Below, one piece after another: positions 26,138 to 42,393 of a stretch of DNA of 64,000 bases. Below the pieces are notes generated by a model. The model made no database searches. It saw only the letters and a list, made by a program, of their open reading frames with translations, and had not been told where the DNA came from. Location: the NCBI GenBank assembly GCA_020348925.1, contig CP070758.1, forward strand, positions 4,711,775-4,775,774, read 5' to 3'. How positions within the stretch are numbered: the stretch's first letter is position 1; each line of letters begins with the position of its first letter. Position numbers and translations under genes: made by a program. The stretch comes from Gemmatimonadota bacterium. Lineage in GTDB: Bacteria > JBHIER01 > G020348925.

Positions 26138-28804
26138 TCAAAGTGCTAAAATCAGGTTGACGATGGCAACGATGTCCAAAATGTCAATCACGCCGTCGTG
26201 ATTCATGTCGGCTGTCGAGAGTTCATACTCGCTCGCCGGATCACCAATTCCTAAAATGATACTGATGGTTCGCAAGATATCCAAAATATCCACAGCGCAA
26301 TCGTTGTTTACATCGCCGGCGTCTGCACACTCCTGGTATTTTGCTGTAAACAATCCTCTCCCGTGAGTGGCAGCTAAGACCGTACCATCGCCTTTCCGGA
26401 CTTTCAACATATCGACCCTGACATTGGCCAATCCTTGGACAGATGGTGTCCAGTACACATCATTTTCATCGAGATTGTCCGTTGTCCAGACGCCAATTTC
26501 CGTGGCCAGCATGGCTTGCTTTGAACTCCCCGGAAGATAGACGGCCCACCGAACCGGTATATCGGGGAGGTTCCCTTCTTTTTCACCCCATGTCGTACCA
26601 CCGTCGTACGTTTGCCAGACCGAGGAAACCCCGTAATTCGAGAACGTGACGAGAAGCGTATCCTCCGAACCTCCCACGGCAATACAGGAGATATTTCCGG
26701 ACGGGAAGCCGCCGCTTCCGATCTCCGTGGCATACGGGTTGGCATGGGCGTTGTCGACTTTGAACAGCCTGCCTGCCTGCGTTCCCAGGAAGAGTGTGGT
26801 TGTTCCCCACGGGGAATGGGGAGAGACTTTTACATGGGAAAAGGGAACGGATGTTCCGGTGGTCAACCACATGAACTCTCCCAAAGGTTTGAGCGGCAGT
26901 CCGCTGATTCTCAGAATCGTATTCAGGTTGTGGAGATCAAAGGAGGTGGCGTTGGCATACAACGTGTTCATGTAGGAGTCGTAATCTGCCGGATTGATGA
27001 AAATACCGCTGCTGTAATCACCCAAGCTCCGGACCAATCTGTCATTGACGAAAATGTAATATCTGTTGTAATAGACGGAGGTGATATAAACTTCGTATTC
27101 GTTTCTATCGAAGAAGCAATAGGCTCCATCACCCCCGCTGACCATGTCGTTGATATCCAGAGGGGCATCTCCGTAGAGCAGGGTTCCGTTATCCTGGAGT
27201 CCTCCCAAATAAGTGTTGGTATTCGATTCGGGATGTATGTCACACGTGTAAAATTGAAGCGTGTTGTATCCTCTGTTCTTCTCTACGAAGATCGGCTGGG
27301 GTGAGGTACCGCTGGCGGTGTAGAAAACACCACCGTCGTTGGCGAAAAGAATTTCATCGGACGAACCGGGCTTGAAGACAATGGCATGCTGATCGGCGTG
27401 GACGTATCGCGTGCCGCCTCCATAATACATTCCCGTCCAATCCGACACGCGCGTCCACGACTCTCCCGCATTGGTGCTCTTACAGAGATCCAAGCCGCCG
27501 ATAAAGACCGTGTTGGGATCATTCGGATCAACGCCGATAGTGAGCGCATGCCAAGCCAGGGTGGCCCAGTTTCCGTACTGGTTATCGGGCGGGATACTGG
27601 TCTCCGACCACGTAGTCCCTCCGTCAGTGGAACGGAGGATGTGGTTCCCGTACGAATAATTGAAGCCGAAGGTGTTTATGAAGCCTGAGCCGATGACGGC
27701 ATAGACGATGTTCTCATCGGATGGTGCGCTGGAGAGCATGACCCTGCCCGGGATCGTGTAGGTCGGGGCGGATTCAATGACGGTCACGTAGTCGTCGAAA
27801 ACGGTCCATGTGCCCGGTGTGCCGTCATCCGAATACAAAATTGTGGCGCCTCCCTCGCCGGCCAGATTTTTCAACGTTCCGACGTAGATGCGACCGTCGG
27901 GCCCGATTTCGATATCGGCGGGGGCGTAAGGATCTGAAAGGCCCGTGATATTGGGAAGCACCTGCTCCCAGTGCTCACCCCCATCCTCGGATCGGTAGAG
28001 GCCGTCGGAGGGGTAGCTTTCGTGAATACCGTGATACACTCCCGATACGACGCCTGCGTATATAACGCTGGTATTGTTTTCATCTCGGACTGCAATGTCG
28101 GTTACGTAGGCGAAGTTCTCGGTTGAGTATAACGCATGCCACGTATTTCCTCCGTCCGTTGATTTCCATATCCCCATACCCCGGCCGGAGGATTCCCTGT
28201 ATATTGTCACTGCTGTGAAGGCCTCTCCGGTGCCGACGTAGAATATTTCAGGATTGTTGGGATCGTAAGCAATGCAGCTGATGGCCAGATTGTCCCAGAA
28301 ATCGTCGACAGGAATCCATTCGGAATTGTCATCCGTAATGTCGTTGTTATACCATAAACCGCCTGTGACGCCTCCTGCCCAGGCTGTCTTGTATGACGGC
28401 TCGTTCGGGTCGATCATGAGAGCCCGGGTTCGACCACCCATATTGGCGGAAGTTCCTTCCCAGGTCAAGTCGAATGCGGTCGGTCTCTGACCGGCCTCTT
28501 TCCGTATGGCCTGAGTCTCTCTGAAAGCGTCCTTCAATCTTTCAGTGGGAACCCTCCCCAGATCAGGATCCAATGTCATGAAGTAATCCTGGAAAGCAGC
28601 CAGATCCGGGTGCTCGGGCTTCGGTATCTCTTTCAAATCCTCACTGGAGTAATTGGGCAGTTTCTGATACTGTTCCTTCAAAAATTCCTCGTACTTCCCT
28701 CTGTCAATCATTACCCTGTCAGGGGAGCGAAGTAGAATAATGGCAAAGACGGAGAGAGTCGCAATGATGAGTGGACTGATAATTCTGGGTGCAATTCTCC
28801 TCAT
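26138..28804 (-). CDS. Secreted BNR/Asp-box beta-propeller protein (sialidase/Vps10-like) with C-terminal dockerin
   Basis: GGRTRAL, repeated STDGGxTW, HADQH, GGLQDNGT, ATHGRGLF, GDVNNDCAVDILD / ADMNHDGVIDILD. Confidence 0.85.
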   Translation of the reverse strand: MRRIAPRIISPLIIATLSVFAIILLRSPDRVMIDRGKYEEFLKEQYQKLPNYSSEDLKEIPKPEHPDLAAFQDYFMTLDPDLGRVPTERLKDAFRETQAIRKEAGQRPTAFDLTWEGTSANMGGRTRALMIDPNEPSYKTAWAGGVTGGLWYNNDITDDNSEWIPVDDFWDNLAISCIAYDPNNPEIFYVGTGEAFTAVTIYRESSGRGMGIWKSTDGGNTWHALYSTENFAYVTDIAVRDENNTSVIYAGVVSGVYHGIHESYPSDGLYRSEDGGEHWEQVLPNITGLSDPYAPADIEIGPDGRIYVGTLKNLAGEGGATILYSDDGTPGTWTVFDDYVTVIESAPTYTIPGRVMLSSAPSDENIVYAVIGSGFINTFGFNYSYGNHILRSTDGGTTWSETSIPPDNQYGNWATLAWHALTIGVDPNDPNTVFIGGLDLCKSTNAGESWTRVSDWTGMYYGGGTRYVHADQHAIVFKPGSSDEILFANDGGVFYTASGTSPQPIFVEKNRGYNTLQFYTCDIHPESNTNTYLGGLQDNGTLLYGDAPLDINDMVSGGDGAYCFFDRNEYEVYITSVYYNRYYIFVNDRLVRSLGDYSSGIFINPADYDSYMNTLYANATSFDLHNLNTILRISGLPLKPLGEFMWLTTGTSVPFSHVKVSPHSPWGTTTLFLGTQAGRLFKVDNAHANPYATEIGSGGFPSGNISCIAVGGSEDTLLVTFSNYGVSSVWQTYDGGTTWGEKEGNLPDIPVRWAVYLPGSSKQAMLATEIGVWTTDNLDENDVYWTPSVQGLANVRVDMLKVRKGDGTVLAATHGRGLFTAKYQECADAGDVNNDCAVDILDILRTISIILGIGDPASEYELSTADMNHDGVIDILDIVAIVNLILAL

Positions 28805-28841
28805 TTTCAACCTCCTTTGCTAACCTGCTTTATTCACAAGC

Positions 28842-28952: not shown

Positions 28953-29275
28953 TGGTATCTTACAGTGGGAAGGATAAACGAACAGAGTTCAAAACTAATA
29001 ACTTTCATAAATCAAATAAAAGAAATATGTTAAATTATATTCTGACCGATTTTATGAATACTCCTGGCTAACAACGTTTTGACAGACACAGAAAAAGAAA
29101 GTTTCAAGAACAGTCAAAGGTAAAACGTGTTCCTCTTCATTACAACAGAAATCACCCCGCTTTTTTGGAAAAAATGTATCCGGGGAAAGAGAAGGCGCGA
29201 AACATTTCGGACTTTTTCCCTGTCCTAAACATGTACTTTTATCGCGTGACATATTCGAACCAAAGGGGGTTACCG

Positions 29276-29908
29276 ATGCTTACAAAAAGAACGTTCCTGG
29301 AGCTTGATCGCAGGCAGTTTCTTTCGAAGATCATGCCGGCATGTGCTCTGACATGCTTCGGACTGGGGAGTACCGTTGCGTTGGGACAGGATGCCGAGGA
29401 GTCCACTCCTCTTGAGGATGTGCACAAATTCGACGAGGAATTCGGAAGAAAATTGACGTACAGACAGTATTTTGTCGCACGATATGGAGAATTCATCCAA
29501 TTGGCCAAAGCTTTGGAGAAGGAACTCGGAGAAGAAAAGACGATACAATTTCTCAAGGAATACACAACAGAGAAAATGCTCCAATACGGCAAGAGCCACG
29601 CCAGTAAATCGCCTGATAATGGTTTTCACACGTATACGGACACCTTTCGAGACCCCGAGAGGTACAAGAACACCGCAACCATGGAGATTATTGAGGACAC
29701 GGAAAGGGCCTTCGAGCTGAAAGTGACCGAGTGTTTATGGGCGACCTCCTTTTTAGATGCCGATGCCGGGGAAATCGGTTATGCGTCCGTGTGCTACGGT
29801 GACTACGCCTGGGCCGAGGGCTTCAATCCTAAAATTGGCCTGATCCGTGACAAGACTTTGATGCAGGGGCATGGCTACTGCAATCATCGATACATTCTCA
29901 AGGTGTAA
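29276..29908 (+). CDS. L-2-aminothiazoline-4-carboxylate hydrolase-like family protein with Tat signal
   Basis: DRRQFL twin-arginine leader; VTECLWA, VCYGD, RDKTLMQGHGYCNHRY. Confidence 0.8.
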   Translation: MLTKRTFLELDRRQFLSKIMPACALTCFGLGSTVALGQDAEESTPLEDVHKFDEEFGRKLTYRQYFVARYGEFIQLAKALEKELGEEKTIQFLKEYTTEKMLQYGKSHASKSPDNGFHTYTDTFRDPERYKNTATMEIIEDTERAFELKVTECLWATSFLDADAGEIGYASVCYGDYAWAEGFNPKIGLIRDKTLMQGHGYCNHRYILKV

Positions 29909-30041: not shown

Positions 30042-30069
30042 TTGACTTTGGTCACAGTCTGGGTATAAT
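30042..30069 (+). promoter_or_regulatory. Sigma70 promoter upstream of the GRE operon
   Basis: TTGACT-N16-TATAAT. Confidence 0.55.
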
Positions 30070-30214: not shown

Positions 30215-31117
30215 ATGGGCATGATTTTTGACATAAAAAGATATGCCATCCACGACGGGCCGGGCATTCGGACCACGGTCTTTCTGAAGGGATGCCCGTT
30301 GAACTGCCGGTGGTGTCATAATCCGGAGGGCAAGGCGCAAAAGCAGGAATTTATGTGGTGGGAGGGGAGATGTATCGGATGTCAGAGCTGTCAGAGCGTC
30401 TGTGCTCAGGGAGCCATCTCCTTTTCGGATGATTCCCTCATTTTGGATCAGGACAAGTGTGATGCGTGTAAAGTGTGTGTCGATGCCTGCAACCCGCGTG
30501 CTTTGGAGCTGATCGGGGAAGAGATGACAGTGGCCCAAGTCATGAAGGAGATAGAGAGAGACGAAGTCTTTTACGACGAGTCCGGTGGTGGGGTAACCCT
30601 CTCGGGGGGTGAGCCGCTGATGCAGCCGGATTTCTCGCAGGATATTTTGAAATCTTGCAAGGAGCTCATGATCCATACGACCCTCGATACGTGTGGATAT
30701 GTCCAATCGGATCTGTTTTCAAGAATCTGTGAGCACGTGGATTTGGTTTTGTACGACCTCAAGGTTGTCGATGATAAGAAGCACATGGCGTTGACAGGCG
30801 TATCAAATGAAATTATTGTAGCGAACTTGAAAGAGCTGTCAAGGAGTGGCAGGAATTATATTGTGCGTTTTCCCGTAGTCCCCGGTGCGAATGATGATGA
30901 AAAAGATATTCTCGAATTTGGGGAATTGGTATCTTCACTCAGTAATGTTAATAGCGTGAGTATCCTTCCGTATCATAACGCAGGAGATGAAAAGAGCAGG
31001 AGACTCGTCAACTCGAGAACCTCATCATTCTTCGGCCATCCCAGCACTTCTGAGCAAATGGTTGAAATTGAAGAAAAGCTCAAAGCGTTGGGGTTGAAAG
31101 TCCAAACAGGAGCATAA
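30215..31117 (+). CDS. Glycyl-radical enzyme activating protein (radical SAM with ferredoxin insert)
   Basis: HDGPGIRTTVFLKGCPLNCRWCHNPE, two CxxCxxCxxxC, SGGEP, LPYH. Confidence 0.95.
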   Translation: MGMIFDIKRYAIHDGPGIRTTVFLKGCPLNCRWCHNPEGKAQKQEFMWWEGRCIGCQSCQSVCAQGAISFSDDSLILDQDKCDACKVCVDACNPRALELIGEEMTVAQVMKEIERDEVFYDESGGGVTLSGGEPLMQPDFSQDILKSCKELMIHTTLDTCGYVQSDLFSRICEHVDLVLYDLKVVDDKKHMALTGVSNEIIVANLKELSRSGRNYIVRFPVVPGANDDEKDILEFGELVSSLSNVNSVSILPYHNAGDEKSRRLVNSRTSSFFGHPSTSEQMVEIEEKLKALGLKVQTGA

Positions 31118-31122
31118 CAAGA

Positions 31123-33486
31123 ATGACAGAGAGAGTGAGCTTTTTGAGAGAGCAGAGTGTGCATACCCGTCCGTATATTTGCACTGAACGGGCGGAGCTG
31201 CTGACAGATTTTTATCAAAGCGCCTTAACCAATACGGTCTCCACCCCTGTGGCACGGGCCTTGGCCTTCAAAAATATCATGGAGAATAAGACCGTCTATA
31301 TCGGTGAGAGAGAACTGATCGTGGGAGAGAGGGGATCGGCACCAAAAGCTACGCCCACGTACCCTGAGTTGTGTTGTCACACATTGGAGGATCTGGAGAT
31401 ATTGAATGCCAGAGAGCGGGCGCCCTTCCTGGTGAGTGAGGAGGCGAAGAACGTTTACAGTGAAAAGGTCATCCCCTTCTGGATGGGCAGGACCATGCGC
31501 GATCGGATCTTCGCCGCCATGTCCGAGGAATGGATGAACGCGTTCCAGGCAGGAGTGTTTACGGAATTCATGGAGCAGAGGGCGCCCGGGCACGCCATTT
31601 TGGACGACAAGATCTATCATAGGGGATTGCTCGATTTCAAGCGAGACATCAAACGAGGGCTGGATAGTCTTGATTATTTCAACGATCCTGACGCCTACAC
31701 GAAGGGAGAGGAACTGAAGGCGATAGAGATCGGTGCGGACGCAATCATTCTCTTTGCGGGGCGCCATGCCGAGAAAGCGAGAGCACTGGCGGAGGCGGAA
31801 ACGGATCCGCACAGGAAAGAGGAGCTGGGTAGAATCGCAGAGGTGTGCTCCCATGTCCCGGCCCGTGCTCCGAGAAATTTCTGGGAGGCCTTGCAGGCGT
31901 ACTGGTTCGTCCATCTGGGCGTCATCACCGAATTGAATGTCTGGGATTCCTTCAACCCGGGACGTCTCGATCAGCATTTGTATCCCTTCTATGTGAAGGA
32001 TTTGGAAGAAGGACATCTTACCGAGGAGGCCGCAAAGGAGTTGTTGGAATGTTTCTGGATCAAGTTTAACAATCAGCCGGCCCCTCCGAAGGTGGACATC
32101 ACCGATGAGCAGAGCGGTACCTATCAGGATTTCGCCTTGATCAATGTCGGCGGCCTATCAGAAGACGGATCAGACGCCGTCAACGATCTCTCCTACCTCA
32201 TACTGGATGTCGTTGAGGAGATGCGGCTCATCCAGCCCAGCGCCTGCATTCAACTCAGCAGCAAAAATCTCGATCGTTTCTTAACAAAGGCCGTCGAGGT
32301 CGTCAGGGCCGGGTTCGGACAACCCTCGATGTTCAATACCGATGTGATTCTGCAGGAGTTTCTCCACGCCGGCAAGTCCATGGAGGATGCGAGGGCTGGG
32401 GGGCCGAGCGGCTGTGTGACCATCAGTGCCTTCGGCAAGGAGAGCTGCACGTTGACCGGATACTGCAACTGGCCCAAAATCTTTGAGCTGACCCTGAACA
32501 ACGGAACCGATCCGCAGAATGGAGTGCCCGTCGGACTGAAGACGGGCAACCCTGCGGATTTCTCGACCTTTGACCATTTGTTATCAGCGTATAGAGAACA
32601 ACTGAAATACTTTTTGGACATCAAGATCAAAGGTAATAATATCATTGAGAGAATCTACGCGGAGTATATGCCTGCGCCTTTCATGTCGCTCCTTGTTGAT
32701 GACTGTATTGCCAAGGCGAAGGATTATCACAACGGCGGGCCGCGGTATAATTCCACGTATATCCAGGGTGTCGGTATTGGGACGCTGACGGATTCGCTGT
32801 CAGCGGTGAAATATCATGTCTTTGACAATAGGCATATGACGATGGCCGAGCTGCTTGAGCTGCTTCGGGATGACTTTACCGGGTCCGAGAAAACAAGAAA
32901 GATGTTGTTAAACGAAACTCCGAAGTACGGCAATGATGAGGACTACTCGGACGGCATCGCGCGGTCCGTCTTTAACATATACTTTGATCTTTTGGACGGG
33001 CGGCCCAACACGAAGGGCGGAAAGTATCGGGTCAATCTGCTGCCGACCACGGTCCACATCTACTTCGGGCGGGTTACCGGTGCGACGCCGGACGGGCGGA
33101 AAGCAGGAGAACCGCTCTCCGACGGTATTTCACCGGCACAGGGAGCGGACAGGAAAGGTCCCACCGCTGTCATCAAATCGGCCTCCAGGATCGATCATGC
33201 CAGGACCGGCGGGACGCTGCTCAATCAGAAATTCATGCCGCAGTTGCTGGCGGATGAGGCCGGCAGAGAAAAACTGAGGCATCTGATCCGAACATACTTC
33301 AAGCTGGGCGGGCATCACATGCAGTTCAATGTCGTCGACGCGGAGACGTTGCGGGAAGCCCAGAGGGAGCCGGAAAAATACAAAGACCTCATCGTCCGTG
33401 TGGCAGGATACAGCGACCATTTTGTCGATATCGGGAGAGAGTTGCAGGATGAGATTATAAGCAGGACGGAGCATAAAGAATTTTAG
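31123..33486 (+). CDS. Glycyl radical enzyme, HypD (trans-4-hydroxy-L-proline dehydratase)-like, with variant active site
   Basis: PTYPELCCH, EFMEQRAPGH, WDSFNPGRLDQH, FNNQPAPPKV, LTGY, LPTT, RVAGYSD (Gly762). Cys loop reads GCVT (Cys431, Thr433), not GCVE. Confidence 0.9.
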   Translation: MTERVSFLREQSVHTRPYICTERAELLTDFYQSALTNTVSTPVARALAFKNIMENKTVYIGERELIVGERGSAPKATPTYPELCCHTLEDLEILNARERAPFLVSEEAKNVYSEKVIPFWMGRTMRDRIFAAMSEEWMNAFQAGVFTEFMEQRAPGHAILDDKIYHRGLLDFKRDIKRGLDSLDYFNDPDAYTKGEELKAIEIGADAIILFAGRHAEKARALAEAETDPHRKEELGRIAEVCSHVPARAPRNFWEALQAYWFVHLGVITELNVWDSFNPGRLDQHLYPFYVKDLEEGHLTEEAAKELLECFWIKFNNQPAPPKVDITDEQSGTYQDFALINVGGLSEDGSDAVNDLSYLILDVVEEMRLIQPSACIQLSSKNLDRFLTKAVEVVRAGFGQPSMFNTDVILQEFLHAGKSMEDARAGGPSGCVTISAFGKESCTLTGYCNWPKIFELTLNNGTDPQNGVPVGLKTGNPADFSTFDHLLSAYREQLKYFLDIKIKGNNIIERIYAEYMPAPFMSLLVDDCIAKAKDYHNGGPRYNSTYIQGVGIGTLTDSLSAVKYHVFDNRHMTMAELLELLRDDFTGSEKTRKMLLNETPKYGNDEDYSDGIARSVFNIYFDLLDGRPNTKGGKYRVNLLPTTVHIYFGRVTGATPDGRKAGEPLSDGISPAQGADRKGPTAVIKSASRIDHARTGGTLLNQKFMPQLLADEAGREKLRHLIRTYFKLGGHHMQFNVVDAETLREAQREPEKYKDLIVRVAGYSDHFVDIGRELQDEIISRTEHKEF

Positions 33487-33860: not shown

Positions 33861-33898
33861 AAATAATTTAAGGATTGTATACTCAAAAGAGGAATGTA

Positions 33899-36259
33899 AT
33901 GTCTGAGATAGACTCAACACGCCCCAATTTCTCCGATAAAGAGATACGGAAATTTGCCAAGGACTTGTATGGCCTCGACGCCTCTGTTCGACCGTTGGAC
34001 AGCTACAGTGACCAGAACTTTCACCTCACAAGTGAGATTGGTGAGGAATTTGTCTTCAAGGCGGCTCATGCCGCAGAGCAAAGGGAGGTCCTTGATGCTC
34101 AAAACCAGGCCATGAAATACCTGGAAACAGAGTGCACATCATTCGAGTTTCCTCGCGTTTGCAGGACAGTATCGGGCGAAGAGATTGTTTCCGTGAAGAC
34201 TGGCAAAGGTGGATCCTGCTCTGTACGGATGCTGACTTTTCTGAAAGGCACTTTCCTCGCCGATCTTGAATCGCAAACAGAAGATATATTATACAGTTTC
34301 GGGCGATTTTTGGGCCGTATGGACAAAGCGCTCACCGGATTTTATCACCCCGCCGTCCACAGGAATTTGCCGTGGGATTTGAAGAACACCCTTCATGCCA
34401 GCCGAAACGTCCTCCATGTTCGAAATCCGCGTCAAAGAAGTCTGGTCGAGCATTTTCTGCTCCAATTTGAAACGTTTGTCACTCCTGTTTTGCCACACCT
34501 TCGCACCAGTGTTGTTCATAGCGATGCCAATGACCACAACGTGCTTGTGGATGATTCTGATTCGGGCGACGCAAAGATTGTCGGAATAATCGACTTCGGC
34601 GATATGGTTCATACCGCTACTGTGTGCGAGCTTGCCATCGCTGTTGCCTATGCGATGTTCGGAAAAAAGGATCCTATGGAGGCGGCCAAACAGATCGTGC
34701 GCGGTTATCACGAGGTCTATCCACTGAGGGAGTCGGAGCTGGGTATACTTTTTCACTTGATATGCGGACGGCTGTGTATCAGTGTGACCATGTCGGCCCA
34801 TCAACACGAGCTCGAACCGGAGAACGAGTATATTATGGTATCCGAGAGACCGGCATGGGCATTACTTGAGAGATTGTTGGAGGTGAATCCCGAGCGAGCG
34901 GGCAACGAGTTCTTGCAGGTGTGTGAGATACCCCTCTCCCAGAAGTGGCACGGTCTGAATCACAGGGAGATCATCGATTTGAGACAACGGCTCATCGGAA
35001 AATCCCTGAGCATCTCGTATAAAAAGCCGTTAAAAATAATCCGCGGGGCGTTGCAGTATTTATATGATGATACCGGCCAGACCTATCTGGATGCTGTGAA
35101 CAATGTATCGCACGTGGGACATTGCCACCCCAAAGTTGTCAGGGCAGCGAAAGATCAGATGGCGGTCCTCAACACGAATACGCGATATCTTCACGATAAC
35201 CTCGTGACGTATGCCCAGCGCCTCACCTCGAAGATGCCTGAGCCGTTGCGTGTCTGTTTCTTCGTCTGCTCCGGAAGTGAGGCCAACGACCTGGCGCTTC
35301 GTCTGGCGAGGACGCATACGAAAGGGAGAGATGTTCTTGTCGTTGACGGTGCCTATCATGGCACGACCACGTCTGACATCGAAATAAGCCCGTACAAATT
35401 CGACGGCCCCGGCGGAGCAGGCGCCGAACCTTTTATTCACAAGGTCCCCATCCCTGATCTCTATCGGGGAGCCTATGAGGCTACCGATCCGGAGGCCGGT
35501 AAAAAGTATGCGGAATACGTTCGGACGACGATTGAGCGGATGCAGAAGGATCGAAAACAGGTGGCGGCATTCATTTGTGAGCCTCTCATGGGATGTGCGG
35601 GCCAGATTGTTTTTCCCGAAAATTATCTTCAGGAATCCTTTCGCCATGTCAGGAACGCAGGCGGCGTCTGTATCGCCGACGAAGTTCAGGTGGGGTTTGG
35701 CCGGGTGGGATCGCATTTCTGGGGTTTTGAGACGCAGGGTGTGATTCCGGATGTCGTGACTCTTGGGAAGCCCATGGGCAATGGGCATCCCCTGGCCGCG
35801 GTCCTCACGACCCCGGAAATTGCGGAGTCTTTCAACACCGGCATGGAGTATTTTAACACCTTTGGCGGCAATCCTGTCTCCTGTGCGGTGGGCCTGGCTG
35901 TTCTCGACGTGATCGAAGAAGAAAAGTTGCAGGAGAATGCGCTGAGGGTCGGTGCCCGGATGAAAAAAGGACTTGAACATCTGAAAGCGAAACATCCTCT
36001 CATTGGCGATGTGCGAGGCCTGGGTCTTTTTTTGGGCATCGAGCTCGTATTGGACCGCGAGACACTGGTCCCAGCGACCGAGCAGGCGTCGTATGTCATC
36101 GAGAGAATGAAGGAAGAGGGGGTTCTGATCAGTACGGACGGCCCTTTTCATAACGTTCTGAAGATAAAACCCCCGATGGTTTTCACCGAAGCGAACGCAG
36201 ATCTTTTGGTCAGCACCCTTGACAGAATTTTGGGGGAAGATGCCCTTCAGGACCTTTGA
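33899..36259 (+). CDS. Fusion of APH/hydroxylysine-kinase-like phosphotransferase and class-III PLP enzyme (ETNPPL/PHYKPL-type phospho-lyase-like)
   Basis: Kinase part [24 protein letters not shown] part [45 protein letters not shown]. Confidence 0.88.
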
Positions 36260-36602: not shown

Positions 36603-36797
36603 ATGAGAACGACACTGAACATCGACGATGAAATCCTGAACAAAGCCTCAGAGTTGACGGGTATTAGGGAAAAAACTTCTCTGGTGCGGCTCGGCTTGGA
36701 GGCGCTCATTGCCCGTGAAAGTAGTAAGCGACTCGCAAGCTTGGGAGGGACTGAAAAAGATCTTCGTCCAATTCCGAGAAGAAGATCGACAAAGTCA
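36603..36797 (+). CDS. vapB: Type II toxin-antitoxin VapB family antitoxin (stop and likely vapC lost in gap)
   Basis: MRTTLNIDDEILNKASELTGIREKTSLVRLGLEALIARESSKRLASLGGTE...PRRR. Confidence 0.88.
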
Positions 36798-36897
36798 NNN
36801 NNNNNNNNNNNNNNNNNNNNNNNNNNNNNNNNNNNNNNNNNNNNNNNNNNNNNNNNNNNNNNNNNNNNNNNNNNNNNNNNNNNNNNNNNNNNNNNNN
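36798..36897. other. Assembly gap (100 N)
   Basis: Run of N. Confidence 1.
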
Positions 36898-36912
36898 AAA
36901 AAGGAGGGAGCC

Positions 36913-39138
36913 GTGTTGAAAAAGATATCTTTCGTGATGGGATGCCTGCTCATCTCATTGGCAGGCCAGGCCATGGGGAGTTGGGAATGGCAGAATTTAG
37001 GGAATGATCTGAGCAGCGTTTTCTTTGTCGATGACAATTCGGGCTGGACTGTGGGGGAATTGGGCATCGTTCTTCATACACATGACGGTGGGAAAAGCTG
37101 GGTGGCACAGAGCTGCGAAACGAAGAAGTGCCTTTCGGATGTACATTTTGTTGATGATAAAACAGGCTGGGCAGTGGGAGGAGGCGGTACAATCATGCAC
37201 ACGAAAGATGGTGGGGATAGCTGGACATCTCAATATTTCGGGATTTTCAATCGGTTCTCGGATGTGCATTTTGTCGATGACAGGAACGGTTGGGTCGTGG
37301 GCAAGACGGTGTTGGGTGATAGAGGTGTGGTCGTCCATACAACCGACGGTGGGAATACGTGGGTAAAGCAGCGTGTCAGCACTGACCACTACCTCACAGG
37401 CGTCTTTTTTGTAAGCGAGAAGGTCGGCTGGATGGTCGGCAGGACCCGATTGAGTGATCAGGGAGTCCTTTTTACTACAGAGGATGGTGGGGATACCTGG
37501 CTCGCATTGCACCTTAAGGATTCCATCGGATTTGAAAACGTCTATTTTGTCGATGCAAATTGTGGCTGGATTGTGGGTGGAAATCATGAAAACGGTACGA
37601 GTATTATCGAGTATACCAATAACGGAGGTCGGACCTGGACTGTTCAGAACTCAGTTGTCGATGAATGCCTCGTGGATGTCCATTTTATTAATGCCAACAC
37701 CGGTTGGGTCGCTGGCCACGAAGGCGCCCTGTTAAACACCACCGACGGTGGGAGCAATTGGATCGCAAAAAATCCGGCGGGCGACTGCTACCTGGCCGGG
37801 GTCCATTTTATCGATGCTGGCACAGGCTGGATCGTCGGTGGACGCAAAGAATGGTCAGGGGGTATCATTATGCAGACATCTGATGGCGGGGGCAATTGGA
37901 ATATCAACATCTCTCCGGTGACCACAGTCGATCTGCTCAATGGGTGCTTTGCTGACGTGACTACCGGGTGGCTGGTGGGATCGGGCGGTACCATCCTTCA
38001 CACCATTGATAGTGGAAATGAGTGGAACCCTCAAAACTCCGGGACTGACGAATCCCTTTCAGATGTTTCTTTTGTCGACGACCAGACGGGTTGGGTGGTG
38101 GGATTCTACGGTACCGTTCGTCACACAACAGATGGCGGGATTAACTGGGTCACTCAAAACGCGGGAACAGAGAATCATCTCACGGGTCTTTTCTTTTTCG
38201 ACGCCAGTACCGGCTGGATTGTGGGAAAGCCTGCGTGGAAGGGACCGGGCGTCCTACTGCGTACGACCGATGGTGGGAGTACCTGGGTCGCTCAGGACAT
38301 AGGAGAGTATGAGTTTTCATATGGACTCGAAAGTGTCTGTTTCGTTGATGAAAACACTGGCTGGATCGTTGGGGGGTCTTGCTGGGGGGATTCAACCATT
38401 ATTCTCCACACGGCCGATGCTGGGAATACCTGGACCGCTCAAGTTTGTGAAACCCACCACTACCTCACAAGTGTCTCCTTTGTCGATGCCAGCACCGGCT
38501 GGGCAGTTGGTGAAAAAGGAACCATCCTTCATACGGATGATGGTGGGGTCAACTGGAGGATTCAAGACTCCGGAATTGATAACAATTTCACGGAGGTCCA
38601 TTTTGTCGATGCCAATATGGGCTGGATAGTCGGTAAAGGAGGCATCGTCCTCCAGACATACGATGGTGGGGTCACCTGGAGGGTTCAGAGATCCGGGATC
38701 AATAATGATCTGAATGGAATCAGTTTCACTGATGACGGCACCGGCTGGATAGTGGGAAATAAGGGAATCATTTTACGTTCGGAGAGTGAGGGTATTGTAA
38801 TGACTGAGATTTCAATTGAGGAAGATTACAACCAGGCTGAAGAATCGCCGACCAGTTTCTGTTTGGCTCAAAACTATCCCAATCCCTTCAATTGTGAAAC
38901 AGATATCAGATATCAGATACCGGAGGGTGGATCACCTGAACGGACGACACTGAAAATCTACAATATCCTGGGGCAGGAAATAAGAACGCTGGTTGATGGG
39001 GTTAAAGAATCCGGATATCACAGGGTAAAATGGGATGGCCGGGATCGGTATGGTAGGGAGGTCGCCAGCGGAACATATTTCTACCGCCTCACGATTGGAT
39101 CCTTCACCGTTGCCCGAAGCATGACGGTGATGAAATAA
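36913..39138 (+). CDS. Secreted YCF48-like double beta-propeller protein with CTD
   Basis: SD GGAGG + GTG, signal peptide, many FVDxxxGWxVG..G.ILHTxDGGxxW repeats, QNYPNPFN. Confidence 0.88.
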   Translation: MLKKISFVMGCLLISLAGQAMGSWEWQNLGNDLSSVFFVDDNSGWTVGELGIVLHTHDGGKSWVAQSCETKKCLSDVHFVDDKTGWAVGGGGTIMHTKDGGDSWTSQYFGIFNRFSDVHFVDDRNGWVVGKTVLGDRGVVVHTTDGGNTWVKQRVSTDHYLTGVFFVSEKVGWMVGRTRLSDQGVLFTTEDGGDTWLALHLKDSIGFENVYFVDANCGWIVGGNHENGTSIIEYTNNGGRTWTVQNSVVDECLVDVHFINANTGWVAGHEGALLNTTDGGSNWIAKNPAGDCYLAGVHFIDAGTGWIVGGRKEWSGGIIMQTSDGGGNWNINISPVTTVDLLNGCFADVTTGWLVGSGGTILHTIDSGNEWNPQNSGTDESLSDVSFVDDQTGWVVGFYGTVRHTTDGGINWVTQNAGTENHLTGLFFFDASTGWIVGKPAWKGPGVLLRTTDGGSTWVAQDIGEYEFSYGLESVCFVDENTGWIVGGSCWGDSTIILHTADAGNTWTAQVCETHHYLTSVSFVDASTGWAVGEKGTILHTDDGGVNWRIQDSGIDNNFTEVHFVDANMGWIVGKGGIVLQTYDGGVTWRVQRSGINNDLNGISFTDDGTGWIVGNKGIILRSESEGIVMTEISIEEDYNQAEESPTSFCLAQNYPNPFNCETDIRYQIPEGGSPERTTLKIYNILGQEIRTLVDGVKESGYHRVKWDGRDRYGREVASGTYFYRLTIGSFTVARSMTVMK

Positions 39139-39408: not shown

Positions 39409-42393
39409 TTATTCTATCAATCCCGCCAACCTCGCCTTCGCGTCAATAAATTCCGGCAAATCCTCATCCGCATCCTTCCAAATGTCGAGGAATTTCTCGT
39501 ATTCGCTGATTGCTTTCAAATTTTGATCTGTCTCTTCGTACAATTTGGCAAGGCGATAGTGGTAAATTGGATGAATGAGGCGACAGTCTTTCCTGTCTGG
39601 ATTAAAATTGATCAACCTCACATATTCATCAATAGACTTGTTCTATTCACCCTTTTCAAAATAAGCGCGAGCTAAAATATCAACACAGAAAGGAATATTT
39701 TGGTAAATCAAGTATTTACTTAAAATGGCAGTAGGGGGAACTAAGGGGGATGCTTCTTCGAGTACAGCAATCGACTCATCGACTAAGTTTTGTGCAAGCA
39801 ATAGTTCACTCTTGAAAATGTTATGTTGATATATTGCCCTGTCTTTAGCTTGTGGAGTAACTTCAGACATATATAATTCCAACTTAGACAATTTTGTCAT
39901 CGCAGAATCAACCTGTCCCTGTTTGACATATATTTGCCCAAGAGACAAACACTTAGCAACCTCACGGTTTACAGACTCTGGATATTCTAAACGATGTTCT
40001 TCAAATGCGTTATTAAAATAACTGTATGCAAGGTCAGTCTGATCTCGGTCGAAATACATCCATCCTGTCAGTAACCCAATCTGGTAAATCAAGATCGTAT
40101 TTTCTTCTTTTTTTGCAAGCTTCATTGCCGTTTCAAGACTTTGGAGCGATGACGAGAAACGACCATATAAATATTCATAAACACCTTTCCATGCATACCC
40201 ATCATCTTTAAGTACAGGTTGCTGCACAATATCTATGTAATCGCCAATCCAATTCGTCGCCTCCTGATAATTTTCCTTTAAGGCATAGATGTATCCAATA
40301 CTACGATACGGTGGATAGAAATCAGACTTGATTTCAATTGCTTCCTTATATTTCTCTATCGCTTCATCAAACCTGCCCATTTTCCAATACATCTCACCTA
40401 TGCAATCATAAGGATTTGCGTCCCCAGGCGATATAGATGCATACCTTTCGAAATACTTGATAGCTTCTTCAAAATATTCCATACCCGCATATGCATAAGC
40501 AACGAAGCAAATGGCAATTCCATAGTCGGGATCAAGTTCTAAGGCCTTATTTCCCTCTTCTATTGCTTTATTTAATGGACCATTGTTCAAATACACATTA
40601 CTCAAATAATAATAAACCCTTTTTTCTTTTGGATATTTCTTCTCTATTTGTCTGAGAATGCGAATCTGCTTTTCAGTGTCTCCCTCTATGTAACCAGAAT
40701 ACAATGCTTCTATAAATAGTTTCTCTTTGTCGGTTGTTCTTTCAGAAAGAGCATTCGCTTTCTCATAAGCCTCAACACTTGCTTTAGTATTGCCCTGCAA
40801 ACTATGTGTCCATGCAAGATAAAGATATGCCATTGCAAAAGTTGAATCGATCTCTACTGCTTTTTCAAGAAAGTGTCTGGCATCATTATAATAGGTCATT
40901 TCAACGTTGTCTCTTCCTCTTAAGAAATTGTAATACGCTTCCAATGAGTTGGTCGTGAGATCGACAATTGGTCTTTGAATCTCTCCTGTCTTACTGTCAG
41001 ACAAACCCATTCCTCGGGAGATTTCCAAGCCCAATTCATCAATATGCTCCCCTAAGATACTTTCCTCTCCTCTACCTTTCAAGCTGGCGCTTTTCAAGAG
41101 TTTCTTCGAATTTACATCCAACACCTTCACGTCGGTGATGAACATTTCCCCGGCTTTGGCAAAACTTCCCAGAACAATGGTATTCACATCATCCATTCGG
41201 CACAGCTCAAAGCCGAGTTCGCTGTCTATGACTTCAACATCACCCTTATTCAATTGTTTTGCGAGATCACGCATCCGTTCCCATGTGTTGACCATGAACT
41301 GTGGAGATTGCTCCAGCTTGGTGATGAGGAGGTTAGGGATGACCTTCTGCAGGTAATCGTATGTAGGGTCTCCGGTTTGGTTTTCGAAGCTGATTACGGC
41401 GATGGGTATCCGTTCAGCTTCTTGAGATTGATCGAAAAGAAGAGGGCGAAATATGAAAAATGCCATTGCTATCAGAACAATAAGGCCGGTGGGAACCATA
41501 GTCTTCATCAATCTCTGTTTCTTCCGTTTTCTTTGAAGTGACTCTGGTGGTTGAATTGCACCAGTTGTTATGGACGCTTGCTTTACTTTTTTCAGATCAT
41601 CCAATAATTCACTCACATTCTGATACCGATCCTCTTTCTCCTTCTCCATTGCCCTGAGAATGATCCATTCAAGTTCCTGAGGAACACCTGTATTGAGGTC
41701 AGTGATGGTTTCAGGCGTTTCATTGATGATCGAATATATCACGGCCTGATCACTGTCGGCTTTGAAGGGTACTTTTCCGGTTAAAAGCTCATACAGGACC
41801 ACACCCAGAGACCAGATGTCGGACTGCTGGTCGACTTCCTTCCCGCGGGCCTGTTCAGGGGACATATAGGTCACAGTGCCCATGACGGTGCCCTCGGTGG
41901 TCAGTTTTGTTCGTCCTGTCAACCTGGCCAGCCCAAAATCGGTGATCTTGACCTGTCCCTTTTCCGTGACCATAATGTTGGCCGGTTTGATATCCCGGTG
42001 GATGATGCCTTTCTCGTGGGCGGCTTGCAACCCCTGGGCGATCTGGGTGGTATAGTCGATAGCCTCGTCTACAGATAGAGGCATGGCGCGCCGTGCCCCT
42101 ACAATATCATGTAATGATTGGCCCTCGATATACTCCATGACAATGAAAGTTTGACCGTCGGTCTCTTCTATCTCATGAATGGTGCAAATATTGGGATGGT
42201 TGAGAGCCGCAGCAGCCCGGGCTTCGTTGAGGAAACGTTCCTTGGCTGCGGAATCTTTGTTCAACTCGGGTGGAAGGAATTTGAGAGCGACGGTGCGTTT
42301 GAGTTTCGTATCCTCGGCCTTGTACACTACCCCCATACCACCCTCGCCAATTTTTTCGAGGATTTTATAATGTGAAATGGTTTTACCGATCAT
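39409..42393 (-). CDS. Membrane Ser/Thr protein kinase with TolB_N-like and TPR domains; in-frame TAG at 39643-39645 cuts off the last 78 codons
   Basis: GEGGMGVVY, VALKFL, HRDIKPAN, DFG, YMSPEQ, TM helix, TPRs. Reading continues in frame: AYFEKGE*NKSIDEYVRLINF...WKDAD...AKARLAGLIE. Confidence 0.9.
42076..42102 (-). repeat. GTAG-type REP palindrome inside the kinase coding sequence
   Basis: GTAGGGGCACGGCGCGCCATGCCTCTA, translated as VGARRAMPL. Confidence 0.7.

Follow-up and report, generated by a model that had tools for sequence, protein, structure and literature searches.

Does a glycyl radical enzyme (GRE) of the HypD family still dehydrate trans-4-hydroxy-L-proline when the glutamate of its CXE motif has been replaced by threonine? 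The question is raised by a gene at positions 31123 to 33486 of a 64,000-nucleotide stretch of the genome of a Gemmatimonadota bacterium (GenBank assembly GCA_020348925.1, contig CP070758.1, positions 4,711,775 to 4,775,774 of the forward strand), which we refer to in its entirety as the window. The CXE glutamate counts as a hallmark of GRE eliminases, and HypD of Clostridioides difficile (Cd) loses its activity in the E436Q variant, yet the window gene belongs to a large natural clade that carries threonine at this position. An earlier note on the window had read the gene as a HypD paralogue acting on another substrate or by another mechanism. We find that the threonine-bearing (T-type) GRE is a real, conserved, natural variant of a known enzyme family, apparently undescribed, and that, to judge from its sequence and genomic contexts, the T-type group most likely still breaks down hydroxyproline i.e. 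is an isofunctional or near-isofunctional HypD. Statements cited here to PMC7077986, PMC6219649 and a 2026 review (PMC13450708) refer to excerpts of those papers.

A HypD-family gene pair with threonine at the CXE position

The gene pair and the codons that matter for the argument are as follows; residues of the C. difficile enzyme are given in Cd numbering.

30215..31117, + strand: GRE-activating radical-SAM enzyme, 300 aa (TIGR02494, 346.6 bits, cut-off 174)
31123..33486, + strand: HypD-family GRE, T-type with a GCVT Cys loop (NF043068, 1257.2 bits; PDB 6vxc, 1029 bits)
31591..31593, + strand: His157 codon (Cd H160, partner of Glu436 in HypD), kept (alignment; PMC7077986)
31945..31947, + strand: Asp275 codon (Cd D278, the proposed acid/base of HypD), kept (alignment; PMC7077986)
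32125..32127, + strand: Gln335 codon (Cd T338, beside D339/F340; alignment)
32413..32427, + strand: Cys-loop codons C431-V432-T433-I434-S435, TGT GTG ACC ATC AGT
33406..33408, + strand: Gly762 codon, the glycyl radical site in RVAGY

The open reading frame (ORF) at 31123-33486 encodes 787 residues with no internal stop, and its start lies 5 nt after the end of the activase gene, whose ORF is likewise intact and contains a CX3CX2C motif at residues 27-34 and two ferredoxin-type CX2CX2C motifs. ORF and translation thus bear out the earlier description of an intact GRE with Cys431, Gly762 and a GCVT loop behind its activase. Matches to the PFL-like domain (PF02901, 756.8 bits) and the Gly_radical domain (PF01228, 127.8 bits), the alignment of Cys431 with the catalytic Cys434 of the C. 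difficile enzyme and the adjacent radical-SAM activase place the protein in the GRE superfamily. Its score on the NCBIfam HypD equivalog NF043068 exceeds the cut-off of 1100 bits, so the NCBI pipeline would name it trans-4-hydroxy-L-proline dehydratase.

The best solved-structure match is C. difficile HypD (6vxc), which reads sgcvetgcfgkeayvltgy where the window GRE reads sgcvtisafgkesctltgy. The Cys loop of the window GRE is GGPSGCVTIS, with Cys431 encoded by TGT (32413-32415), Val432 by GTG (32416-32418) and Thr433 by ACC (32419-32421). Thr433 occupies the position of the CXE glutamate (Cd E436) and Ser435 that of the canonical glycine (Cd G438), i.e. the CXE motif of the GRE 1,2-eliminases is here C431-V432-T433. 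Alignment to 6vxc also reproduced the other differences from HypD that the earlier note had listed (TYTDFAN to TYQDFAL, QPSSN to QPSAC, EAYVLTGY to ESCTLTGY and KVGITLKES to KVDITDEQS).

A sequencing or assembly artefact at the threonine codon was considered and rejected. ACC differs from both GAA and GAG at all three positions, as the earlier note had stated, and the GCVT loop recurs in 116 of the 120 closest protein clusters listed. In addition, another study's sediment metagenome contains a 151-nt contig (depth 2) that is identical to the window over 32394-32544, and such an independent copy speaks against misassembly of the ACC codon.

The threonine form is widespread

The closest protein clusters (the best 120 of 8000 scored candidates, all with E <= 1e-100) were 71-100% identical to the window GRE, 119 of them at 71-82%; the four clusters without SGCVT read SGCVE. 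T-type sequences made up 179 of the 239 HypD-family sequences that we assembled. Source names among the listed clusters include Bathyarchaeota, Thorarchaeota, Heimdallarchaeota and Theionarchaea, and the T-type sources overall comprise Bathyarchaeota, Asgard archaea, Planctomycetota, Aminicenantes and others; most of the archaeal sequences recovered fall in the Thr-bearing clade. Three loop types could be told apart among the best 80 of 288 related stretches in species-representative genomes (the GTDB loci): (i) GGPSGCVT[IV]S, present in Bathyarchaeia, Heimdallarchaeota, Ignavibacteria, Aminicenantes and Acidobacteria as well as in Gemmatimonadota, WOR-3, Anaerolineales and many Planctomycetota; (ii) GGPSGCVE[VIT]S, a form with Glu and Ser438 that was found in Planctomycetota; and (iii) the canonical GG[TSA]SGCVE[TV]G of Clostridia, Atribacterota, Chloroflexota and others. 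The same types recurred in metagenome loci (the best 80 of 439 relatives), of which 55 were T-type, 13 had Glu with Ser438 and 12 were canonical.

All four threonine codons are in use (ACA in 12, ACC in 17, ACG in 10 and ACT in 2 of 41 non-duplicate T loci), which indicates that the amino acid, and not the codon, is what is maintained. Judged from these sequences, threonine at the CXE position is selected and the clade is under purifying selection. The check that the earlier note had proposed, a search for a conserved CVT clade, therefore gave a large one, and the alternative that CVT might be a singleton under relaxed selection fails. A full-text literature search, with subscription-only papers outside its reach, returned no paper describing a HypD with Thr for Glu and no characterised archaeal or planctomycete HypD. 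The excerpt of PMC6219649 mentions an archaeal HypD clade and the co-localisation of proC in Clostridia and does not, within that excerpt, mention a Thr variant; the excerpted review states that none of the archaeal PFL-like GREs has been functionally characterised (PMC13450708).

The substrate-binding residues are invariant in the T-type clade

We aligned 27 canonical, 15 derived Glu-bearing (derived-E) and 154 T-type sequences. All 154 T-type sequences, the window GRE among them, keep Cd F152, H160, W277, D278, S334, D339, F340, C434, Y450, T645 and G765. The window GRE thus has the HypD-specific binding and acid-base residues (H160, D278, S334, D339, F340, Y450 and T645, also F152), with Thr433 aligned at Glu436 as the departure. 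Every hallmark of HypD that we looked for is present except the CXE glutamate and, in this genome, a P5C reductase partner (P5C, Delta1-pyrroline-5-carboxylate). The label that fits the protein is HypD-like (CXT type), not demonstrated HypD.

Thirteen positions distinguish the T-type majority from the canonical majority. Most of them (Y144F, T161A, E333Q, G438S, Y445C, L453W, V456I and M616A) are common to the derived-E sequences, and E436T and T338Q come on top of this shared derived background. Position 338 is Gln in 136 of the 154 T-type sequences and Thr in 26 of the 27 canonical ones. Gln335 was considered as an obligatory compensator for the lost glutamate and rejected, as 18 of the 154 T-type sequences have Thr or Val there. 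From the alignment, the subfamily is one with a remodelled Cys loop and second shell whose first-shell substrate contacts are untouched except for the glutamate.

T-type genes replace canonical HypD

The window genome has three PFL-like genes, and the gene at 31123-33486 is the only HypD-like one; on NF043068 the remaining two reach 409 and 141 bits. In each of five genomes with T-type loci that were checked, there was exactly one HypD-family gene. We also examined an even sample of 401 Planctomycetota genomes and 401 genomes from the phylum of a Bathyarchaeota genome. In the Planctomycetota sample, 14 genomes had a match over the cut-off (3 T-type, 4 with Glu and Ser438, 7 canonical), and in one further genome, left out of the typing, the gene was split across two contig ends. 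In the other sample 15 genomes matched, 14 of them over the cut-off (3 T-type, 12 canonical). A second HypD-family copy was absent from every matching genome of both samples, and the T-type gene was the sole HypD-family gene in 12 of 12 T-type genomes examined. T-type genes therefore replace canonical HypD and are not paralogues alongside it.

The other two PFL-like genes of the window genome lie at C1:3858868-3863460 and C1:1342837-1347864 (C1 being its single contig). One of these proteins has 1227 residues, with the PFL-like part starting at about residue 460 behind a long N-terminal extension; the other is a GRE of 875 residues with no NCBIfam equivalog (best TIGR01774 at 490.7 bits, below cut-off).

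Threonine and glutamate have switched repeatedly

The HypD family collapses into few representatives at 50% protein clustering, from which we took six outgroups (P0127, P0129, P0130, P0132, P0134 and P0135) and the canonical representative P0122. In a FastTree of 202 sequences, rooted on GREs of 39-43% identity, the canonical forms were basal and the Ser438 forms made up one derived clade with an SH-like support of 0.999. Parsimony required 7 changes at the CXE position on this tree and 8 on a 239-sequence tree with the trait columns masked. A quick IQ-TREE (LG+G4) of 50 chosen rows also gave 8 changes, of which at least 6 are forced by well-supported branches alone; none of 500 label shuffles on that tree gave so low a count. 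The switching count is based on SH-like and SH-aLRT supports and on parsimony.

The pattern is a single change from Glu to Thr at the base of the Ser438 clade, followed by several reversions to Glu: in L165, in L013 with L151, in P0098, in P0058, in P0057 with P0060, and in one Planctomycetota group within which the Thr-bearing L037 and L159 are nested. All 33 canonical sequences carry Glu. In 8 sister pairs of E- and T-type sequences no column switched consistently with Thr/Glu beyond generally variable positions; position 248 has a possible His/Tyr pattern in 3 sister pairs, which are not independent of one another.

Neighbouring genes point to proline and hydroxyproline metabolism

The activase gene is clustered directly upstream of the GRE gene in 73 of 88 non-duplicate loci, including 36 of the 41 non-duplicate GTDB T loci. 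Other neighbours were typed by a Pfam scan that covered 115 proteins and left out 83 others, mostly single-occurrence neighbours of T loci. A P5C reductase gene (TIGR00112, 269.9 bits, cut-off 196.75) lies divergently upstream of the activase-GRE(T) pair in three distinct loci, namely L125, L126 and L008 (on the same contig as L127), and this points to P5C as the product; in L008/L127 and L125 an aldehyde:ferredoxin oxidoreductase gene also lies directly downstream of the GRE gene.

An M24 Xaa-Pro peptidase gene is found at 11 of the 41 T loci versus 2 of 35 canonical loci (non-duplicate GTDB loci), directly downstream of the GRE gene in L012, L016 and L019. The other neighbours of the 41 T loci include an SSF symporter (7), an M3-like oligopeptidase (6), a GntR-FCD regulator (5), an OCD (ornithine cyclodeaminase)/mu-crystallin protein (4), a proline-racemase-family protein (3) and AcnX (2). 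In Aminicenantes (L012 and L016) the order is GntR, activase, GRE(T), Xaa-Pro peptidase, racemase-family protein and OCD, with an EamA transporter gene after OCD in L012 and a contig edge inside the OCD gene in L016. A Gemmatimonadota locus (L020) has GntR, activase, GRE(T), racemase-family protein, OCD and EamA, without the peptidase. In that locus the only ORFs for the racemase-family and OCD genes (L020:10416-12010) are short, at 252 and 150 aa, possibly through frameshifts or assembly errors.

The best NCBIfam match of the racemase-family neighbours is trans-3-hydroxy-L-proline dehydratase (401-412 bits, cut-off 540), with proline racemase at 385 bits. They carry MCGH and DRSPTGTG, a Cys/Thr pair that we take to be the mark of dehydratases within the proline-racemase family. 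The OCD-family neighbour resembles Pyr2C reductase. AcnX genes resembling cis-3-hydroxyproline dehydratase adjoin T-type genes in L040, L044, L173, L182, L186 and L190, at 430 bits against cis-3-hydroxy-L-proline dehydratase, which is below its cut-off of 700. The closest metagenome relatives of the window GRE (L124 and L144, 79-80% identity) have genes for a DAO-family oxidoreductase, an SO_alpha_A3/BFD protein and Fer4 proteins downstream, a set that may resemble archaeal proline dehydrogenase complexes.

TRAP transporter genes (DctP/Q/M) lie beside the GRE gene in the E-type loci L033 and L003 and in the T-type loci L014 and L155 (47-74% identity), and L003 and L155 also share a full-length UxaC glucuronate isomerase gene (66%) beside it. 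This shared neighbourhood in related Planctomycetota indicates that the E and T forms occupy the same locus. Separately, in Heimdallarchaeota a 2,4-diaminopentanoate dehydrogenase-like gene (NF040740, 329 bits, cut-off 400; L002:10485-11495) lies 121 nt downstream of a T-type GRE gene, and such a gene also occurs in L137 and in the canonical locus L078; this neighbour suggests a link to ornithine or aminopentanoate fermentation.

What the enzyme probably does

In the excerpt of PMC7077986, Glu436 of HypD lies 2.5 Å from His160 and hydrogen-bonds the leaving 4-OH of hydroxyproline, Asp278 is proposed to deprotonate the amine and to protonate the hydroxyl as it departs, and the authors set the role of Glu436 apart from that of the ketyl-forming base of other eliminases. 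The earlier note had taken Glu436 to be the base for the substrate hydroxyl, which does not agree with this proposal of a hydrogen-bond acceptor that positions the 4-OH. The difference matters here, as a glutamate that serves as hydrogen-bond acceptor for the leaving hydroxyl, and not as a ketyl base, makes HypD the eliminase most tolerant of its loss: elimination depends on the ring nitrogen instead of a ketyl, the proton comes from Asp278, and the glutamate is least needed in HypD.

We consider it probable that the window GRE is still a trans-4-hydroxy-L-proline dehydratase in which the hydrogen-bonding role of the glutamate would be taken by Thr433 within a remodelled Cys loop (G438S). Its activation would be the task of the radical-SAM enzyme whose gene ends 5 nt upstream. 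Asp275 would then deprotonate the ring nitrogen of trans-4-hydroxy-L-proline, the Cys431 thiyl radical would take a hydrogen from C5, the 4-OH would depart with acid help from Asp275, and the hydrogen would be given back to C4 to yield P5C. The Cys loop and second shell would have changed first (G438S, T161A, E333Q and Y445C), with the glutamate giving way to Thr433 afterwards, usually together with T338Q. The G438S background with T161A and E333Q may have rearranged the hydrogen bonds in such a way that the hydroxyl can be held by Thr433, with the side chains of Ser435 and perhaps Gln335, together with His157, taking part. We infer these roles, as we do the substrate and the product; the closeness of Thr433, Ser435 and Gln335 to the hydroxyl is read from sequence position. 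In the window genome, which has no P5C reductase, P5C would pass to glutamate via P5C dehydrogenase, and the pathway would be catabolic (Hyp to P5C to Glu).

This assignment is favoured by (i) the invariant binding and acid-base residues, (ii) the single-copy replacement of canonical HypD, (iii) the proline and hydroxyproline contexts, P5C reductase included, (iv) the neighbouring dehydratases that already serve the 3-hydroxyproline isomers, (v) the loci shared by E and T forms and (vi) the viable one-residue reversals. Several observations weigh against it. C. difficile HypD E436Q has no detectable activity (Table 2 of the excerpted PMC7077986), as is likewise the case for H160Q, D278N, D339N, S334A and F340A, and the excerpted review has CXE kept by all six characterised C-O eliminases and also by isomerases (PMC13450708). 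The window activase scores 371.1 bits on the HypD-activase equivalog NF043069, below the cut-off of 425. Five of the 13 signature positions (161, 333, 338, 436 and 438) lie within 2 residues of residues tested by mutagenesis, where about 0.8 would be expected, and this clustering indicates that the pocket environment has been remodelled. The derived clade is strictly two-state at the CXE site (179 Thr and 20 Glu of 199 sequences), the Ala and Lys intermediates of a two-nucleotide path between Thr and Glu are absent from all 199, and repeated switching at a cost of at least 2 nucleotide changes each time also fits two functions. Finally, a genome without P5C reductase, OCD, the proline-racemase family, AcnX and AMP_N-type M24 peptidase gives the window GRE a thin local pathway context.

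Several of these points would be accommodated if T-type enzymes recognised the proline core and acted on another proline derivative, with Thr/Glu as a specificity switch; candidate substrates are another hydroxyproline isomer or a compound with a 4-substituent repelled by a carboxylate. The inactivity of E436Q (PMC7077986) and the two-state site with its at least 6 switches fit such a switch, two carboxylates near the pocket are gone (E436T and E333Q) and the signature changes concentrate at the active site, peptidase, 3-hydroxyproline dehydratase and OCD neighbours are richer at T-type than at canonical loci, and ProC is absent from 3 of the 6 T-type genomes checked, the window genome included. 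Yet the residues that bind the carboxylate, amine and ring, and the proposed acid/base, are all invariant, no genome was found with both forms, P5C reductase adjoins three distinct T loci, dedicated dehydratases next door already cover the 3-hydroxyproline isomers, and E and T sisters sit in the same transporter locus. A return to Glu at one site, with no other consistent change, has been viable in at least 5 lineages, which is hard to fit to a pocket remade to suit another substrate. We therefore regard a new substrate or chemistry as rather unlikely. About as unlikely is its specific form, in which T-type enzymes would be the first natural GRE 1,2-eliminases without the CXE glutamate and a two-state Glu/Thr switch would separate trans-4-hydroxy-L-proline from another proline-derived substrate; if true, this would mean a new GRE activity in sediment Bathyarchaeia, Asgard archaea, Planctomycetota and others that is now annotated as HypD. 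It is very improbable that the protein is catalytically dead or a non-eliminase homologue (for radical storage or regulation, or in decay). A reportedly essential residue is missing (PMC7077986, excerpt) and the window genome has few pathway partners, but the frame, Gly loop, Cys loop and activase are intact, identity to 119 listed protein clusters across archaea and bacteria is 71-82%, the active-site residues are invariant, four Thr codons are used and operon contexts are conserved.

Of the earlier reading, the family assignment, the retained recognition of the imino acid and the loss of the CXE glutamate therefore stand. The inference of a paralogue with a different substrate is not supported, given the sole HypD-family gene in 12 genomes, the proline and hydroxyproline neighbours, the locus shared by E and T forms and the at least 6 swaps, which no change of partner accompanied consistently. 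A different mechanism survives in the narrow sense that the hydrogen-bond partner of the hydroxyl must differ, new chemistry being the less likely reading. Should T-type enzymes prove to be hydroxyproline dehydratases, HypD chemistry can do without the glutamate where the background allows it (G438S and related changes). That would make the mechanism clearer, and natural E/T sister pairs such as P0098 (Glu) and P0116 (Thr), P0057 and P0074, or L013 and L028 offer a way to probe it. In the opposite case, there is a new GRE activity to be discovered, and the annotation is wrong for thousands of environmental genes that score above the HypD equivalog cut-off. The result also suggests that sediment archaea and Planctomycetota commonly catabolise (hydroxy)proline anaerobically.

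The window genome and the genes around the pair

The window genome is a single contig of 5,038,017 bp (96.3% complete). No P5C reductase was found anywhere in it, either as a P5CR_dimer match or by tblastn with two ProC proteins; the earlier observation that none lies nearby thus extends to the whole 5.04-Mb genome, in which the usual last step of proline synthesis appears, from these searches, to be missing. As P5C reductase adjoins only 1 of 35 canonical non-duplicate GTDB loci, its absence from the vicinity does not discriminate between the readings. OCD and proline-racemase-family proteins were not found in the window genome, and AcnX and an AMP_N-type M24 peptidase gave no tblastn match there. 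The genome does encode a P5C dehydrogenase (TIGR01236, 719 bits, cut-off 613.6; C1:1028528-1029898), and a match resembling aldehyde:ferredoxin oxidoreductase starts about 0.8 kb downstream of it, at C1:1030685.

The nearest features on either side of the gene pair are as follows.

29165-29908, + strand: ATC-hydrolase-like protein, 247 aa (C-terminal PF14196, 79.8 bits; no NCBIfam match)
30042..30069, + strand: promoter-like site TTGACT-16-TATAAT (11/12) within the 306-nt gap before the activase gene, a consensus match only
33875-36259, + strand: fusion of an APH-type kinase and a class-III aminotransferase, 794 aa (NF004799 PRK06148, 1048 bits, cut-off 1128)

The promoter-like site, one of 11 in the region where shuffles lead one to expect 6.4, suggests that the activase and GRE genes may form their own transcription unit. 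Neither flanking gene accompanies a HypD-family gene in any of 160 loci, and both were rejected as partners. The ATC-hydrolase-like protein had tblastn matches in none of the 80 GTDB loci (E <= 1e-5) and none of the 80 metagenome loci (E <= 1e-15 and at least half of the query covered), and the fusion protein had weak matches of 26-30% in the flanks of L074 and L078 only, with none in the 80 metagenome loci. The fusion resembles pairs of hydroxylysine kinase and phospholyase, which would be a route for another amino acid derived from collagen. Further out the window encodes an 890-aa protein with a C-terminal dockerin (26138-28810, - strand), an 809-aa BNR/Ycf48-like repeat protein with a T9SS sorting tail (36709-39138, + strand) and a 916-aa Ser/Thr kinase with TPR repeats (39643-42393, - strand).

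The phylum of the window genome has two species genomes in a set of 199,900 species, i.e. the lineage is very sparsely sampled, and the second genome does not have the gene. The source names or titles of the nearest relatives of the window GRE are archaeal or Ignavibacteria. Taken together, the relatives and the absence from the other genome point to horizontal acquisition, and we infer that the two-gene cassette of activase and GRE was likely acquired in this way. The window stretch itself is found in sediment metagenomes.

Comparison with known glycyl radical enzymes

The closest characterised system is C. difficile HypD (PDB 6VXC/6VXE; NF043068), with which the window GRE shares a full-length alignment, the Gly loop, the catalytic Cys, the active-site residues listed above and a dedicated activase gene directly upstream. 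It differs in E436T, G438S, T338Q, T161A, E333Q, Y445C and Y144F, in having no proC adjacent or anywhere in the genome, and in an activase that scores below the equivalog cut-off. The HypD-specific Asp, Ser and Phe, which the window GRE keeps, are not conserved across the other GRE eliminases compared in the excerpt of PMC7077986. Also close is the derived Glu-bearing subfamily (GGPSGCVE[VIT]S; Planctomycetota and sporadic), which belongs to the same clade, shares G438S, T161A, E333Q and Y445C and, in related organisms, has the same TRAP-transporter neighbourhood; unlike the window GRE, it keeps the CXE glutamate (20 of the 199 derived-clade sequences).

The N-methyl-cis-4-hydroxy-L- and D-proline dehydratases HpyG and HpzG (8ID1 and 8IOF) are much more distant from the window GRE (514 and 489 bits). 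They are GRE 1,2-eliminases of hydroxyproline derivatives that take a hydrogen from C5 and eliminate the 4-OH, and they have a CXE motif whose Glu is bonded to the leaving OH (PMC13450708, excerpt). The trans-4-hydroxy-D-proline C-N lyase HplG (7VUA, 395 bits) and the B12-independent glycerol dehydratase (1R8W, 573 bits) share with the window GRE the PFL-like fold, the Cys and Gly loops and a radical mechanism; both keep CXE, with the Glu acting on the substrate hydroxyl (PMC13450708, excerpt).

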